From the NCBI RefSeq assembly GCF_033153115.1, contig NW_026889762.1:5788496-5852495 (forward strand): a stretch of DNA of 64,000 nucleotides. The letters run 5' to 3'. Below, piece by piece: positions 15,986 to 50,900 of this stretch. Source of the DNA: Saccostrea echinata. Lineage: Eukaryota. The notes beneath the pieces are model-generated. The model made no database searches, was not told the DNA's origin, and worked only from the letters and a program-made list of their open reading frames with translations. The stretch's first letter is position 1. Every line of letters starts with the position of its first letter. The position numbers were made by a program, and so were the translations under genes.

Positions 15986-16123
15986 ATGACAACAGAGGGA
16001 GTGTTTGCTGGTTGTCAGGTAGTCCTTGACCTCAGCACCAGTGTAGGTTTCAAGAAGAAACAGGAAGTCAGGAAAACCATCACAAACAATGGTGGAATTA
16101 TCTCGTACATTGTCACAAAAAAG
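15986..16123 (+). CDS. PARP4: PARP4-like exon 1 (start codon; BRCT domain N-part) MTTEGVFAGCQVVLDLSTSVGFKKKQEVRKTITNNGGIISYIVTKK
   Basis: Aligns with human PARP4 N-terminus MVMGIFANCIFCLKVKYLPQQQKKKLQTDIKENGGKFSFSL. Exon opens after acceptor at 15955-56; ATG at 15986; donor AAG|GTAAGA at 16124. Frame stays open upstream of the ATG, so a further 5' exon is possible. Confidence 0.7.
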
Positions 16124-16402
16124 GTAAGAAGCATATTTTTATAATTATTTAAATTAAAATTATTTTTTGCAAGGTTAAAATATCTACACTTGTAAAAGTG
16201 TTGAAGTGGTGTACAAAATTGACTGTTTTAAATGAAGCAGAAAGGTTTAAAAGTTTTTAAAATTCTCAAAAAGTACATGCATGTATTTTGCATATGAATT
16301 GGGTCATTAAGCGGCCCCATTTATAGACAACTGAGAGCCCTGATGAAGGGCCGCTATAAGCTAATAAGATTTACGCATTCTTAATGCCGACTTTTCTTAC
16401 AG

Positions 16403-16601
16403 AGTACCCATGTTGTGCTCAATGATCCAGAAAAAGCTGATGTCAGCTACAAATGTAAAATGGCTGAGAAGTTCCGAATCCCCGTGGTGTCCCTCGATTT
16501 TATTTTTGACTGTGTTGACCAGGGGAAGCAACTCAACACTGACAATTATCTCCTAGTGGGTAAAACGAAGGCCCAGGAATTCAGCAGCGGCAAAATTATG
16601 G
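16403..16601 (+). CDS. PARP4: PARP4-like exon 2 (BRCT domain) STHVVLNDPEKADVSYKCKMAEKFRIPVVSLDFIFDCVDQGKQLNTDNYLLVGKTKAQEFSSGKIMG
   Basis: Matches human THIILDNADVLSQYQLNSIQKNHVHIANPDFIWKSIREKRLLDVKNY. Acceptor ttttcttacAG at 16401-02; donor G|GTAAGG at 16602; ends phase 1. Confidence 0.85.
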
Positions 16602-18705: not shown

Positions 18706-18821
18706 GTGTGTTACATATGAAATAAATGAACATATTGAATGTGACAAAATATTACATTTGAATTTGGCCAATGGGAGACTTTTGGGTACATATATAATCA
18801 TGTATTTTCTTAATTTTCAAG

Positions 18822-18986
18822 GACAAGCCAGGTAGTGGCACTAGAGAGTTCCGTTTTGTACAGACATCGGAGGAAGCCCTGAGTGTGTTTAGTGCCCTCT
18901 ATAAACAGATGACAGAGTCCCCTAATGGCATGACCATCTGTCGGAAACCCCCATGTCAGAATATAGGATCAAAGAAATTCCAAAAG
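18822..18986 (+). CDS. PARP4: PARP4-like exon 5 DKPGSGTREFRFVQTSEEALSVFSALYKQMTESPNGMTICRKPPCQNIGSKKFQK
   Basis: Resembles human RRQFAIKKTSEDASEYFENYIEELKKQGF... Acceptor aattttcaAG at 18820-21; donor AAG|GTAGAG at 18987. Confidence 0.75.
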
Positions 18987-19255
18987 GTAGAGAGAAACAG
19001 GAGATATTGATACAGTATACAATATATCTTTTAACTTTATAGATTGTTACATCATTCCTAACCATATGCATATGATCATGTCATTTTACAAAAATATGAA
19101 ATACAGCTGACCTTATACATGTATGTAGTTGTGAAAATATCAAGCAAACAATTATTACTTTGAGAATGAATTTATTCAGAGTACTATTATGATTTCTAGT
19201 GTAAACTATGTGGTAAATTGAATCTTTGAATTAATTTTTCTTCCATAACATTCAG

Positions 19256-19393
19256 ATGATGGTGGAGTATGGTATGGAGGATACAGAGTTATCTACCCCT
19301 GTGAAGGAGTTGATGCATCACATCTGGCAGGAAGCTGGGGGCGAGATAGAGGAAATCTTAAGTAGCCCACTACAGTCACTGAAACTGGACCAG
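19256..19393 (+). CDS. PARP4: PARP4-like exon 6 MMVEYGMEDTELSTPVKELMHHIWQEAGGEIEEILSSPLQSLKLDQ
   Basis: Matches human LSQEVSDLVEMIWAEALGHLEHMLLKPVNRISLNDVSK. Acceptor cataacattcAG at 19254-55; donor CAG|GTCAGT at 19394. Confidence 0.85.
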
Positions 19394-20320
19394 GTCAGTA
19401 GGTTAGGTCACTGCTATACAGTTACTGAAACTGGACCAGGACAGTAGGTCACTACAATAAATGAAACTGGACCAGGTCAATAGGTCACTACAGTCACTGA
19501 AACTGGACCAGGTCAGTAGGTCACTACAATAAATGAAACTGGACCAGGTCAGTAGGTCACTACAATAAATGAAACTGGATGAGGTCAGTAGGTCACTACA
19601 GTCACTGAAACTGGACCAGGACAGTAGGTCACTACAATAAATGAAACTGGACCAGGTCAATAGGTCACTACAGTCACTGAAACTGGACCAGGTCAGTAGG
19701 TCACTACAAATGAAACTGGACTAGGTCAGTAGGTCACTACAGTCACTGAAACTGGACCAGGTCATTAGGTCACTACAATAAATGAAACTGGACCAGGTCA
19801 ATAGATCACTACAGTCACTGAAACTGGACCAGTTCAGTAGGTCACTACAATAAATGAAACTGGACCAGGTCAGTAGGTCACTACAATAAATGAATCTGGA
19901 CCAGGTAATTGGTCACTTCAGCCACTGAAATGGTATCAGGACAACATGTCACAGCAGTCACTGAAAATGGAATCAGGTGAATAGTTGCTACAATATTGAC
20001 ACTGGACCTGGTCAATACACTCTCTGAAAAATGAATAAGGTCAATAGGCCACTACAGTTGGTGAAACTGGACCAGGTCAAGAGGTCACTAAAGTTACAAG
20101 AAATGGACCAAGTAAGTGAGTCATACAGTCACCAGGAGGTTAGGTCACTATAGTCACTGGACCAGGTCAGTAGGTCACTACAGTCACTGGACCAGGTCAG
20201 TAGGTCACTACAGTCACTGGACCAGGTCAGTAGGTCACTACAGTCACGGGATCATGTCAGTAGGTACCATAAGTACTGAAACTGGACCACACCATTAGCT
20301 CCATACAGTCACTGAAACTG
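19372..20320. repeat. Intronic minisatellite of about 25 copies of a 36-bp unit (two alternating variants in a 180-bp higher-order period), derived from the exon 6 / intron 6 junction
   Basis: Unit tcactaca(gtcactg|ataaatg)aaactggaccag|gtcagtagg. Every unit repeats the last 14-17 nt of exon 6 plus the GTCAGT donor. Lines at 19441 and 19621 are identical (180-bp period). A degenerate 30-bp variant repeats four times at 20150-20260. Confidence 0.9.
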
Positions 20321-20519
20321 TGACAATAGATTTAGTGGTTATTTAATAGTACTCAGTTTCTGTAGTCTTGCAACAATTAGTCAAATATCACTTGACAAAG
20401 CAACAGATATTGTCATAAAGTAAATCTGACATCCCTATTTCTAATTTGAAAATGTTAGGTTAACTTTTCAAGAAATTCCACAGACCAGTTAAATGAAAAA
20501 TAAATGACGTTCATTGTAG

Positions 20520-20687
20520 GTGGAGAAGGCGACGGCCATTTTGTCAGAGATGAAGGAACACCAATCAGATGAGAGTAAGCTACAGAGTCTGTTTACAGAA
20601 TTCTACTCCACCCTCCTCCACAATCCCCAGCACAAGACAATGACCTTCACCATGTCGTGGCTGGCCAGAAAACTGGACCTTTGTCAG
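20520..20687 (+). CDS. PARP4: PARP4-like exon 7 VEKATAILSEMKEHQSDESKLQSLFTEFYSTLLHNPQHKTMTFTMSWLARKLDLCQ
   Basis: Strong match to human AEGILLLVKAALKNGETAEQLQKMMTEFYRLIPHKGTMPKEVNLGLLAKKADLCQ. Acceptor ttcattgtAG at 20518-19; donor CAG|GTACAA at 20688. Confidence 0.9.
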
Positions 20688-27548: not shown

Positions 27549-28727
27549 GTATGACCGTCATTATACTTGTCTGGTAAAATTTGATGAAAAGTACAATGTA
27601 CTATTGCATTAGACCTTTGGCATTGTATTGTATTACATTGACAGGGAGTCTGTTCATGACAGGATAACAGGAACTCTTTTTTTTCATAACTTATTTTCTT
27701 CTTATGTTAATCCTGAATTGTACGTTCGTAATAAATACGTTTTACCAAATGTGTTGAAACTAAATTTAGTGTCAATATTAACCCAAGCTTTCTTACGCTT
27801 GGTGTCTGGATCAATGTTCATAGTTAATTACATTTACAAAACTACCCGATTAATTAAGAAATAATTAAGTGAAATTAACTCTTTCACCAGTCTGTCCAAG
27901 CGTATGCTCATCAGTGTATCAATTAATTTTAATTATACGGCGACATTAAGTGTAAATAGGTAATTTTTTTATGTCTACTTTGGATGAATAAAGAAACAAT
28001 TTGAATGCATGCTTTGTTGCTGTGTTAATTTATTTAATATGTGACCAAAAAAAAAAAAAAAAAAAAAAACCAAACGAAACATTGGTAATTTGAATTGACC
28101 ATAAATTAAAAATGAAAGTAGATCAAAATAAACAAGATGGATGCCAAGGGATCTAGAAGATTGAGTTTGAAGAGTATTAAGCTTTATTTAAGTGAATTTA
28201 TTTATAATAAAAACTTGAAACAGTAAGTAAATATTGTGAAATGATATGTCAATTAAAACTTGTATTTCAAATAAACCTAAAAAATCGAAATTATATGTAA
28301 CGTAAGATGTATAATACATCCAATAATTTACACAAACGTCGTATCGTCAGCCGTCCGACATGAATTTCATCCAACTATGGTTATTATAAAAGTCGCTTAT
28401 TATAAAGTTTTGGCCTGACAAATAAACTATGATAATAAACGAATTGTACTGTATTTTGAAACCTCTACTTAGTTAATAGACAAAACATTTTCTTTTTAAC
28501 GAAAGTTTGGTTTGACATTAAAATGCTATAGGTAGTGATGACACCTTAAAAATTTTTGAAATTATACCTTAGGTAAAATATTTTGTGAAAACTTCCACAT
28601 ATGTAGGTAGTAAAAATGTACAGGCATTAACTGCACAAGGTGTTAAGTACATTTTAGGTGGTGTATTTTGTAGAGGACTGCCACACAAGGTGTTTAATAC
28701 ATTATTTTATTTTGTTGCATTTTGTAG

Positions 28728-28862
28728 AGAACTGCCACTAAAGCTACTGTAGAGATGAAAGAGGACCAGACAATAGAAGATGGCTTCCAGTTGCTGATAG
28801 GTCTAGCAGAGATCCACGTGCCGCGAATGTGGGTGGAATCGGACGAAGGCGAAGATTCACAG
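28728..28862 (+). CDS. PARP4: PARP4-like exon 17 RTATKATVEMKEDQTIEDGFQLLIGLAEIHVPRMWVESDEGEDSQ
   Basis: Matches human RTDCKAVISTMEGSSLDSSGFSLHIGLSAAYLPRMWVEKHPEKESE. Acceptor ttgcattttgtAG at 28726-27; donor CAG|GTATTC at 28863. A partial copy of the acceptor plus the first 14 nt lies 50 bp upstream (28650-28665: ttttgtagaggactgccaca). Confidence 0.9.
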
Positions 28863-29217: not shown

Positions 29218-30087
29218 TCACAAATGTTTTACTGAGTCTAGTTTTCTGTTAGTTAATCACTGCTGGATTGTCAGTGAGTTACTTAACAGGCCTGTGTGCT
29301 GACCTATTACCCTGAGTCTTATTCTCTCTCAGTAAGTCACTGTTGATATGTTTACTGGTTTTATTACAGGCCTGTATGCTGACCTTTTACCCTGAGTCTT
29401 ATTCTCTGTCAGTTATTCACAGTTGATATGTTTACTGGTTTTATTACCAGGCCTGTATGCTGACTTTTTACTCTGAGTCAAATCCTCTGTCAGTTATTCA
29501 CAGTTGATATGTTTACTGGTTTTATTACCAGGCCTGTATGCTGACTTTTTACTCTGAGTCAAATTCTCTGTCAGTTATTCACAGTTGATATGTTTACTGG
29601 TTTTATTACCAGGCCTGTATGCTGACTTTTTACTCTGAGTCAAATCCTCTGTCAGTTATTCACAGTTGATATGTTTACTGGTTTAATTACCAGGCCTGTA
29701 TGCTGACCTTTTACCCTGAGTCTTATTCCCCGTCAGTTATTCACAGTTGATATGTTTACTGGTTTTATTACCAGGCCTGTATGTTGACTTTTTACTCTGA
29801 GTCAAATCCTCTGTCAGTTATTCACTGTTGATATGTTTACTGGTTTTATTACCAGACCTGTATGCTGTCCTTTTAATCTGAGTCAAATCCTCTGTCAGTT
29901 ATTCACTGTTGATATGTTTACTGGTTTTATTACCAGGCCTGTATGCTGACCTTTTAAGTATCTGAGTCTAATCCTCTGTCAGTTATTCACTGTTGATATG
30001 TTTACTGGTTTAATTACCAGGCCTGTATGCTGACCTAATTCTCTGTCAGTTATTCACTGTTGATATGTTTACTGGTTTTATTACCAG
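29218..30087. repeat. Intronic tandem repeat of about 10.5 copies of an 80-82-bp unit that ends exactly at the exon 18 acceptor. Each unit contains the acceptor and the first about 30 nt of exon 18
   Basis: Unit ...gttgatatgtttactggttttattacCAG|GCCTGTATGCTGACCTTTTACCCTGAGtcttattctctgtcagttattcaca. The last unit runs straight into exon 18 (ACMLTFYPE...). Upstream units carry an in-frame TGA (cacagtTGAtatg). Confidence 0.9.
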
Positions 30088-30274
30088 GCCTGTATGCTGA
30101 CCTTTTACCCTGAGTTTGAGGCCGAGGAGGAGTCAGAGGTCGAGGTCATTTTGATGATTGACAGCTCCAACTCCATGAAAGGCTCCGCCCTACAACAAGC
30201 CAAGAAGGCTGCTCTATTGACTCTTCACCTCATGGAGTCCAGTTGGAGATTTAATGTGGTGTCTTTTGGAACAG
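30088..30274 (+). CDS. PARP4: PARP4-like exon 18 (VWA domain start, MIDAS-like DSSNS) ACMLTFYPEFEAEEESEVEVILMIDSSNSMKGSALQQAKKAALLTLHLMESSWRFNVVSFGT
   Basis: Matches human EACMLVFQPDLDVDLPDLASESEVIICLDCSSSMEGVTFLQAKQIALHALSLVGEKQKVNIIQFGTG. Acceptor ttttattaccAG at 30086-87; donor ACAG|GTACAA at 30275; ends phase 1. Confidence 0.9.
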
Positions 30275-34739: not shown

Positions 34740-35049
34740 GTTATCTTCACCTCTAGTCATAGGAGTATACAATGGAATGTACATACATGTGATCTATAAC
34801 AACTGTTTCTTATACCAACAGAAAAATAGGAGAAGAATAAAAAATTCATTGTGAAATAAGATATATATTTATATTTTGTTTTCTACCAAGGATGAGAGTT
34901 CACCTCCACTCATAGGAGTATACAATGAAATGTACATACATGTAATCTGTAACAACTGTTTCTTATACCAACTGAAAAAAAGGAGAAAAATAAAAAAAAA
35001 TCCTTGTGAAAGCAGATATATAATTATTTATATTTTGTTTTCTACATAG
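34740..35049. repeat. Tandem duplication (2 x about 150-165 bp) ending at the exon 27 acceptor. The upstream copy carries a pseudo-acceptor plus first 12 nt of exon 27
   Basis: 34860-34892 tattttgttttctaccaAGgatgagagttcacctcc parallels 35030-35066 tattttgttttctacatAGgatgagagttcagagag. The bodies (agtcataggagtatacaatggaatgtacatacatgt... / actcataggagtatacaatgaaatgtacatacatgt...) are also collinear. Confidence 0.85.
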
Positions 35050-35103
35050 GATGAGAGTTCAGAGAGTTCAAGCGATGAAGGAGAAACGGAAGAGTCTTCC
35101 ACG
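35050..35103 (+). CDS. PARP4: Acidic-tail exon 27 DESSESSSDEGETEESST
   Basis: Phase-0 open frame between acceptor ttttctacatAG (35048-49) and donor ACG|GTAAAT (35104); Ser/Glu/Asp-rich. No vertebrate counterpart identified; assignment rests on phase continuity. Confidence 0.55.
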
Positions 35104-49149: not shown

Positions 49150-49750
49150 TCTTCTGTGTCCAGACCTGTTTCTAGTGGGATCACAATAATCTTAGCATAA
49201 GAATTCCATGATACTTGGGTGGTCTCAACCTGATCAGTAGTCTAACTTGAGTAATGGTCTTAACCATAACAGGAGTCTAATCTTAATCTGAGCAGTAGTC
49301 TTAACCTGATCAGTTGTCTAGCCTGAGTAGTTGTCTTAACCTGATCAGTTGTCTAACCTAAGTAGTTGTTTTAACCTGATCAGTTGTCTAACATGAGCAT
49401 TTGTCTAATGTGAGCAGTTGTCTAACCTTAGCAGTTCTCTAACCTGAGCAGTAGTGTTATAACCTGAGCAGAGGTCCTAACCTGAGCAGTAGTCTAAGCC
49501 TGAGCTGTAGTCTTTACCTGAGCAGTTGACTAAACCTGATCAGTAGTCTTAACCGGAGCAGAAATCTTAACCTGAATAGTTGTCTAAGCCTGAGCAGTAG
49601 TCTAACCTGAGCAGTGGCCTCAGCCTGAGCAGTTGTCTTAACCTGAGCAGTAGTCATAGCCTGAGCAATAGTCTTTACATGAGCAGTTGTCTTATAACCT
49701 GAGCAGAAGCCTTAACCTGAGCAGTTGTTTTAACCTGAGCTGTAATCTAA
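49150..49750. repeat. Intronic minisatellite of about 33 copies of an 18-bp unit TAACCTGAGCAGTWGTCT
   Basis: Direct read; imperfect units (cctgagcagtagtct / cctgatcagttgtct, etc.). Confidence 0.9.
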
Positions 49751-49995
49751 GCTGAGAAAATCATTGATAATACTCGGGTGTCAAACAAGACCCATGAGCA
49801 ACTTGTCCAAACTTCATGAAATGTATGAAAGACAAGTGTAGTAAAAATTTCAAGTCTTGAATGCATGTAAACATAGGGACTACTGGTGAAACTGTAGAAT
49901 ACTTTCCACATGTTTAACTCTTTTAAGTTTGTTAACATAATATTGAAATAACAAAAGACACTGTTTATAGAATGTTCCAGTCTTTTTGTTTTTAG

Positions 49996-50412: not shown

Positions 50413-50900
50413 TTTTTTGTCGGCGCAACTCCTCATAAACGGCTGCACAGAATTTCGCCAAACTTTGTAGATATTTATGACACAATGTGTAGATGTGCTT
50501 ATTACCAGGAAATTCTGATTCCCTTATTTTTCTGGGAATTTTGGCACTTTTCAACTTAGATTTTTGGCCATATCTTGAATATAGAGATGGACAGTTTGTC
50601 AGTGCAACTCCTCTTAAACCGCTGCACAGAATTTTGCCAAACTTTGCAGATATTTAGTACACAATGTGCAGATGTGCATATTGTCAGGAAATTTCAATTC
50701 CATTATTTTTCTCGGAATTCCGGCATTTTTCAACTTAGATTTTTGGCCATGTCTTGTAAATAGAGATCGACAGTTTGTCAGTGCAACTCCTCTTAAACCG
50801 CTGCACAGAATTTGGTCAAACTGCAGATATTTAGTACACAATGTGTAGATATGCATATTACCAGGAAATTCCAATGCCATTATTCTTGCCCTAAGAGTTT
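50413..50900. repeat. About 2.7 copies of an approximately 184-bp tandem repeat, preceded by a TATACCCC...GGGGGTA hairpin motif and a (GTCA)n tract (MITE-like head at 50336-50412)
   Basis: gtcagtgcaactcctcttaaaccgctgcacagaatttngccaaactttgcagatatttagtacacaatgtgcagatgtgcatatt... recurs at about 50413, 50597 and 50781; a degenerate copy at 51236-51360. A diverged homologous array sits at 59610-60000 in the duplicated segment. Confidence 0.8.

Follow-up and report, generated by a model that had tools for sequence, protein, structure and literature searches.

Several human genes, namely F7, IFI6 (6-16), CBS, LMNB2, and PDGFA, carry minisatellites whose first monomer lies across an exon-intron boundary (PMC1557585). 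The 37-bp VNTR in intron 7 of F7 presents 5 to 9 identical donors, of which only the most upstream is used (Borensztajn et al. 2006; PMC1557585), and both the splicing and the polymorphism of this repeat have been demonstrated by experiment (PMC1557585). According to the account of Turri et al. 1995 given in PMC1557585, the two proximal pseudo-sites of the 12-nt IFI6 minisatellite are constitutively used and add residues in frame. The same source mentions a 31-bp VNTR in CBS intron 13, a 100-bp repeat in LMNB2, and an 81-bp repeat in PDGFA intron 4 as reiterations of an exon/intron junction (PMC1557585). A related process, as outlined in PMC2891723 and PMC4974935, is intron sliding or gain by tandem duplication of DNA with splice signals, after which one copy is kept in the transcript and the other becomes intron.

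We analyzed a window of 64,000 nt (the whole stretch of DNA examined here), for which an initial annotation had proposed an intronic minisatellite made of reiterated copies of an exon-end/donor junction. This description is borne out, because the unit combines 26 exonic with 10 intronic nt, two units agree with the true junction at all 36 positions, and orthologues lack the array. As far as its sequence allows a class to be assigned, the array belongs to the known class of junction-spanning intronic minisatellites, and three structural properties read from one haplotype place it there. It is a head-to-tail array of units in the 10- to 100-nt range inside an intron (periods 36 and 30), its first monomer (19368-19403) crosses an exon/intron boundary whose exon end is validated by orthologues, and the authentic donor is reiterated as pseudo-5' splice sites. 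The origin of the array had also been called unusual. We disagree, because the same architecture is found in human F7, IFI6, CBS, LMNB2, and PDGFA (PMC1557585), and because three more junction-spanning duplications, one of them putative (35050), occur in the same gene.

The closest parallel is to F7, where an authentic donor is likewise followed by identical pseudo-5' splice sites in units of nearly the same length (37 nt in F7 and 36 nt here). The two arrays differ in that the F7 monomer holds 4 exonic and 33 intronic nt, whereas the unit described here holds 26 and 10, and in that F7 has 5 to 9 copies, compared to ~27 copies here, which fall into subtypes and include a decayed core as well as a 30-nt derivative. 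In addition, the behavior of F7 is known experimentally and in human, whereas the present array is known from sequence and resides in an invertebrate PARP4 host. IFI6, in the secondary account cited above, shares with our locus a series of ~25 pseudo-donor sites after the authentic one and a repeat that starts from the exon/intron border. Its proximal sites are described there as in frame, whereas the GT-keeping pseudo-sites of our array lie behind an in-frame stop and are nearly all out of frame. CBS, LMNB2, and PDGFA, so far as that source describes them, also have a reiterated junction; they are mammalian genes with documented VNTR status, whereas our array was read from one haplotype and its first complete downstream copy carries a GT>GA change. 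As in intron sliding or gain in the form outlined above, tandem duplication included splice signals, but that process moves or creates an intron, whereas here the intron has kept its position and an array grew from the duplicate.

The host gene is a PARP4 orthologue

By its domain content and homologues, the host gene reads as an orthologue of PARP4 (vault PARP) and most resembles the oyster gene. Pfam matches to plus-strand open reading frame (ORF) pieces include BRCT (1.7e-9), PARP catalytic (1.8e-25), VIT (4.7e-19), and partial VWA (4e-4) domains, and the gene has the order BRCT, PARP catalytic, VIT, and vWA that marks PARP4. Homologues carry the name PARP4, with all of those matches shorter than 600 aa. 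Among the named matches, Crassostrea gigas PARP4-like ranks first (82.5% identity over 286 aa, six exons), which suggests a bivalve fairly near the oysters as the probable source of the DNA. The exon map obtained by tblastn runs from 19.2 to 33.9 kb on the plus strand, and upstream coding exons are located at ~15990-16144 and 16415-16600 (BRCT) and at ~18820-18990.

The array follows a 138-nt exon at 19256..19393 (plus strand; 46 codons ending ...SSPLQSLKLDQ), which is supported by its open frame, its AG/GT borders, and orthologous ORFs (P0001 and P0002, 85-87% identical to it). The next exon, at 20520..20687 on the same strand, has 56 codons (VEKATAILSEMKEH...ARKLDLCQ; VEKATAILSEM...), and its join to the preceding exon is conserved in related species. 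Both exons fall in the helical regulatory region, where a weak PARP_reg match was obtained (E = 6e-4). These two consecutive exons end similarly, with ..GAAACTGGACCAG/GT (KLDQ, 19380-19393) and ..AAAACTGGACCTTTGTCAG/GT (KLDLCQ, 20669-20687), where the slash marks the splice junction; this similarity could be a coincidence or could reflect an old internal similarity.

Organization of the donor array

Alignment to the concatenated 36-nt unit places the array at 19368-20325 in 30 segments, of which segment 1 is the true junction and segments 2 and 28 are fragments, and the junction is present in ~27 tandem copies. The unit, CACTACAGTCACTGAAACTGGACCAG/GTCAGTAGGT, consists of the last 26 nt of exon 19256-19393 and the first 10 nt of the intron. 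Its authentic copy occupies 19368..19403 on the plus strand (36/36 to the unit; donor GT at 19394-19395). Tandem Repeats Finder (TRF), which had been suggested as a check, recovers the array at 19426-19917 with a period of 36 (13.8 copies, 87% matches; alternative periods 72 and 108) and a second block at 20141-20265 with a period of 30 (4.2 copies, 95%).

Four zones follow the authentic copy, all on the plus strand. TRF, unit alignment, and lag identity define a 5' block at 19404..19913, which comprises a 12-nt fragment and 14 units of 36 nt. Its units are of two subtypes, A (..CAGTCACTG.., exon-like) and B (..CAATAAATG..), and units 5 (19486) and 10 (19666) match the true junction at 36 of 36 positions. 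The middle of the array (19914..20145, units 17-23) is degenerate, with indels and 61-86% identity to the unit, and probably contains the oldest copies. It is followed at 20146..20265 by a sub-array, seen by TRF and unit alignment, of four 30-nt units that correspond to the 36-nt unit minus 6 nt; units 25 and 26 are identical, unit 24 is one base off, and all three retain an intact CAG/GTCAGT. Unit alignment ends the array with two decayed terminal units at 20266..20325. The unique intron tail, read from the sequence, extends from 20326 to 20519 and ends with the acceptor AG at 20518-20519. Overall, the array makes up 83% of the 1126-nt intron.

The initial annotation counted about 25 units that each contain AAACTGGACCAGGTCAGTAGG. 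This count is generous: ~17 good copies can be recognized, and ~8 are degenerate. The 21-mer itself occurs 5 times exactly, 12 times with at most one mismatch, and 18 times with at most two. Similarly, the core 23-mer ACTGGACCAGGTCAGTAGGTCAC has 18 occurrences with at most 3 mismatches, all of them within the array (0 expected), and the remaining 63 kb of the window hold no match longer than 11 nt to the array unit.

A proposed 180-bp higher-order repeat is real but only partial. At a lag of 180, the 96 nt at 19428-19523 recur with 100% identity at 19608-19703, and five-unit blocks are 93-94% alike, compared to 82% at lag 36. Regardless, the unit types run in the order ABABB-ABAB-ABABB, which has no clean 180-nt period.

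The heterogeneity of the units is ordered, comprising two subtypes, diagnostic variants at lag 180, a 3-nt deletion, the degenerate core, and the separate 30-nt block. This order bears on whether the assembly wrongly expanded a short tandem duplication or mis-estimated its copy number. Tandem arrays are indeed error-prone in assemblies, but artefactual expansion usually yields identical units, and we consider an artefact very improbable given such structured variation.

The junction predates the array

For comparison, we used contigs of two related species (L001 and L004), which were reached via the short ORFs 85-87% identical to the exon. The orthologous intron is 171 nt long in L001 and 759 nt long in L004, and in neither is there an array at the junction. 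By alignment, AAACTGGACCAG/GTCAGT is invariant in the three species, whereas the introns diverge beyond +6, and the KLDQ/VEKATAIL join is kept in both relatives. In the orthologous introns of L001 and L004, the array units match only the junctions, with identity reaching 94% over 33 nt. Furthermore, the units share the synonymous states of the window's own exon (TCA CTG, versus TCC CTC or AGC ATC) as well as the window's own intron bases +7 to +10. Because the relatives keep the exon end and the donor without an array, these comparisons indicate that the junction is ancestral and constrained and that the array was derived from it. The distant PARP4 loci L010 and L011 were set aside for intron comparison because PARP4 is almost intron-less there.

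A 5-mer repeat at the junction has the spacing of the array. The exon contains AGTAG at 19361..19365 (plus strand), and the same 5-mer recurs at intron positions +4 to +8 (19397-19401), exactly 36 nt away, which equals the unit length.

The related species also hold isolated junction-like sequences. At 615-633 of L004 (also at 706-724 of L005), the donor junction has a single isolated copy, AACTGGACCTAGTCAGTAG, ~350 nt into an intron that otherwise does not align, and the score of this copy in L004 was reached by 0 of 500 shuffles. The history of the array thus either predates the species split or recurred, with the L004 copy being either a relic or an independent duplication; in both cases, it argues against a history made up of just one recent event in the lineage of the window. 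In L001, the short orthologous intron includes a degenerate copy of the start of the next exon (~1215-1240, GTAGAGAAACTTAACAGCCTCATTT). The following intron of L001 begins with GTCAGTAGGTCCACTGTCACTG (1438-1459), which agrees at 22 of 24 positions with the unit-to-unit boundary of the window array. Two acceptors in L001 have weak exon-start copies in their introns, with scores of 21 and 23 (2/500 and 0/500 shuffles, respectively). A candidate relic copy of an acceptor junction in L009 was dropped as not significant, since 128 of 1000 shuffles did as well against its own junction.

These comparisons also speak to whether the array is a dispersed satellite or transposon-borne repeat that landed beside the exon, or whether the exon end was instead recruited from such a repeat (exonization). 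Transposon-like satellites do occur elsewhere in the window (the 166-nt array at 36005-38718 and the related 153-nt units at 45497-45925), and the 22/24 match in another L001 intron is unit-like. Yet the array begins precisely at the junction and lacks terminal repeats, and its 26 exonic nt encode the conserved PLQSLKLDQ, also found in species that lack the array. No other copies are present in the window, and no arrays in metagenome contigs: a search of 241 million metagenome records with the array-specific 20-mer CCAGGTCAGTAGGTCACTAC returned only two single matches, both in GC-rich, bacterial-looking contigs. These two matches are due to chance, and neither a second allele nor a dispersed family was seen there. 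On the combined window and metagenome scan, the array does not qualify as a dispersed satellite or transposon-derived repeat, and we regard both versions of this origin as extremely improbable.

Pseudo-donors and their predicted consequences

There are 25 junction-equivalent positions after the true donor, and these had been described as a series of about 25 near-consensus cryptic 5' splice sites. Near-consensus sites are indeed present, yet their number was overstated: 7 of the 25 carry a 9-mer identical to that of the true donor, ~6 are comparable, and 4 have lost the GT that is kept in the other 21. The identical sites have CAG/GTCAGT, which is complementary to U1 at 8 of 9 positions; accordingly, CAGGTCAGT occurs 8 times in the window, always in the array (once as the true donor and 7 times as a pseudo-donor). 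Three other pseudo-donors keep GTCAGT with GAG, TAG, or CAT upstream, and three more score similarly with GTAATT, GTGAAT, or CAA/GTAAGT. The two closest neighbors of the true donor are compromised, with GT>GA in unit 3 (dead) and +5 G>A in unit 4, which gives GTCAAT (weakened).

The reading frame through the array supports two earlier claims. Reading through from the exon, the ORF spans 19256..19447 and ends after 17 codons at a TAG (19445..19447, plus strand), as stated. All GT-bearing pseudo-donors are located 3' of this first in-frame stop, and splicing from any of the downstream copies would indeed be predicted to truncate the protein. Furthermore, the spacer before the first pseudo-copy is 46 nt rather than 36 nt, which puts every copy that keeps GTCAGT +1 out of frame; 22 of the 25 junction equivalents, including all of these copies, sit 1 mod 3 from the true donor. 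Splicing at a pseudo-donor would thus add 82 to 862 nt of frame-shifted (+1) sequence containing the TAG. Such a product would be a substrate for nonsense-mediated decay and would not yield a protein isoform. The frame and the stop of these products are read directly from the DNA, and their splicing and decay are what we would predict from them.

The same arithmetic applies to the idea that downstream donors are productive and generate protein isoforms as in human IFI6. A pure A unit is open in frame (GTC AGT AGG TCA CTA CAG TCA CTG AAA CTG GAC CAG = VSRSLQSLKLDQ), as this idea needs, but the 46-nt first spacer shifts every GTCAGT copy and every GT-bearing copy lies beyond the TAG at 19445-19447. 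We therefore rejected in-frame isoforms, which are contradicted by the frame and stop codon of the real sequence and are hardly credible for this locus.

Two ways in which the array might influence splicing were considered and dropped. Folding of the RNA from 19340-19640 showed no extra stability relative to shuffles (z = -0.93), which removed donor sequestration by RNA structure from consideration. Recursive splice sites (ratchet points) have a polypyrimidine tract and an AG adjoining GTRAGT and are found in very long introns. Each unit of the array has AG/GT, but a polypyrimidine tract is absent, the 15 nt upstream being purine-rich (CTGAAACTGGACCAG), and the intron is only 1126 nt long.

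Between 19474 and 20237, each good unit also holds AGGTCAnnAGGTCA, a direct repeat of the nuclear-receptor half-site with 2-nt spacing. Perfect copies of AGGTCAnnAGGTCA number 13, all inside the array, compared to 0.01 expected. The AGGTCA motifs arise automatically from the sequence CAG/GTCAGTAGGTCA, and the direct repeats are probably a by-product of it.

One could read the array as a selected cis-element, either a cluster of U1 snRNP sites that follows a donor whose +3 base is C or an intronic enhancer built from nuclear-receptor half-sites. Such a U1 cluster would make exon definition stronger or shield the pre-mRNA. What speaks for selection is the density of U1-complementary sites (7 exact and ~6 comparable, at 8 of 9 positions, in 930 nt), the 13 half-site repeats confined to the array, and the enrichment of junction duplications in the host gene. 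However, the two related species have the same GTCAGT donor without an array, the middle third of the array is decaying, several of the pseudo-donors are dead, and the AGGTCA motifs need no selection because they come with CAG/GTCAGTAGGTCA. A selected element is improbable on this evidence.

Further junction-spanning duplications in the host gene

Within 20 kb of the host gene, at least three and probably four junctions have duplications of a splice site together with 12 to 28 nt of exon. The first is the donor duplication at 19393 (36 nt, ~27 copies). The second is an acceptor array at 29267-30115 with ~10 copies of an 81-nt unit, which combines the last 53 intronic nt (..ttttattaccag) with 28 nt from the start of the vWA exon (GCCTGTATGCTGACC..). 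The true exon start at 30088 is confirmed by homologues, which align as DSQ/ACMLTF. In front of the real acceptor, this array places ~10 pseudo-3' splice sites, each followed by an in-frame TGA, and the orthologous introns of L008 and L009 have no 81-nt array.

The third is an acceptor duplication at 28620-28743 (54-nt unit, ~2.3 copies; exon start 28728, confirmed by homologues with KTDTKAV). Its unit consists of 38 intronic nt (..ttttgtag) and the first 16 exonic nt, with the junction ttttgtag/AGAACTGCCACTAAAG, and the upstream pseudo-copy of this acceptor, AGGACTGCCACACAAG, is itself directly 5' of a GT. The fourth, a putative acceptor duplication at 34746-35061, has two copies of a 153-nt unit and a putative acceptor at 35049/35050 (AG at 35048-35049). 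It includes the first 12 nt of a putative short acidic exon (GATGAGAGTTCAGAG..., 35050-35104) and has TTCA microhomology at its borders.

When 40 junction segments were scanned against their own introns, exactly these 4 were significant, with scores of 37 to 91 compared to a null maximum of 33. None of 222 control segments of 50 nt from intron interiors reached 35, and one reached 33. The difference (4/40 versus 0/222) gives a one-sided Fisher P of ~5e-4, a post hoc value for segments that are non-independent, and a crude model of placement gives ~1e-3. In addition, all tandem duplications with a period of at least 30 nt between 15000 and 36000 of the window span a splice junction. A purely random, neutral origin would not lead one to expect this excess. 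That the splice junctions of the host gene, and perhaps of its bivalve lineage, are preferred seeds for tandem duplication is a tentative and rather unlikely reading, and we treat the junction bias as a lead, not a conclusion.

Arrays unrelated to junctions are also present elsewhere in the window. An 18/36-nt minisatellite at 49222-49756 (GTCTTAACCTGAGCAGTA, ~25 copies, 75% matches) has no adjoining coding exon and is a counterexample to the junction pattern; we rejected this 18-nt array as a fifth junction repeat because none of the three frames is open in its left flank. At 9156-9308, a 66-nt unit is repeated 2.4 times, and each copy holds GTGTGTTTTATTGC...ATATTGCAG and then ~21 nt, so that a segment bounded by GT and AG is followed by a short spacer; this repeat gave no evidence of coding. 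Satellite-like arrays with units of 150 to 180 nt are located at 36005-38718, 45497-45925, 45998-46525, 50416-50884, and 59723-60013, and these are presumably transposon-associated satellites of the kind reported in bivalves. The first of them has 16.5 copies of a 166-nt unit, whose start (TTAAAAATCTTCTTCTCA...CCCCGGGGGTAGGGC) is common to the 153-nt array at 45.5 kb.

Proposed history of the array

The array is, in our judgment, quite likely a lineage-specific, VNTR-type intronic minisatellite that arose from a tandemly duplicated exon/intron-boundary segment of the PARP4 orthologue and that is most likely neutral. In the founding event, a 36-nt boundary segment (26 exonic and 10 intronic nt) would have been tandemly duplicated, probably by slippage between the two AGTAG 5-mers. 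The duplicate would then have expanded by replication slippage or unequal exchange. As the pattern of units suggests, this expansion could have left the two subtypes and the partial blocks of five units, together with a degenerate core of old copies and a more recent sub-array of 30-nt deletion derivatives.

Throughout, the most upstream copy would have stayed the working donor, because only this copy yields the conserved KLDQ/VEKATAIL protein. By analogy with human F7 IVS7, where the most upstream site alone is used, the 25 downstream pseudo-5' splice sites are expected to be largely silent. Silencing would be achieved by first-come 5'-to-3' selection together with definition of the 138-nt exon, and the changes in units 3 (GT>GA) and 4 (+5 G>A) would have disabled the nearest copies. 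Both the use of the first donor and the silence of the others are what we infer from reading frame and orthology. The array most likely has no function of its own and is neutral or slightly deleterious. Length polymorphism and splice noise, which the initial annotation had suggested, are plausible outcomes of such a repeat.

The class of junction-spanning minisatellites has been described from a few human genes, and this array extends it to an invertebrate. With an authentic donor followed by 7 identical and ~14 variant copies, the array is a natural experiment in 5' splice-site choice, and it is suited to asking whether the rule seen in human F7, that the most upstream site wins, also holds in mollusks. 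The pattern of junction duplications suggests that a genome-wide survey could show tandem duplications to be biased in their sites of origin or persistence. If there is a mutational bias (for example, one coupled to transcription or splicing, or one based on AG/G microhomology) or selection for extra splice-site copies, then such duplications would be a general route of intron growth and a general source of cryptic sites. Such a bias would bear on intron growth, on the load of cryptic sites, and on annotation errors in repeat-rich bivalve genomes.
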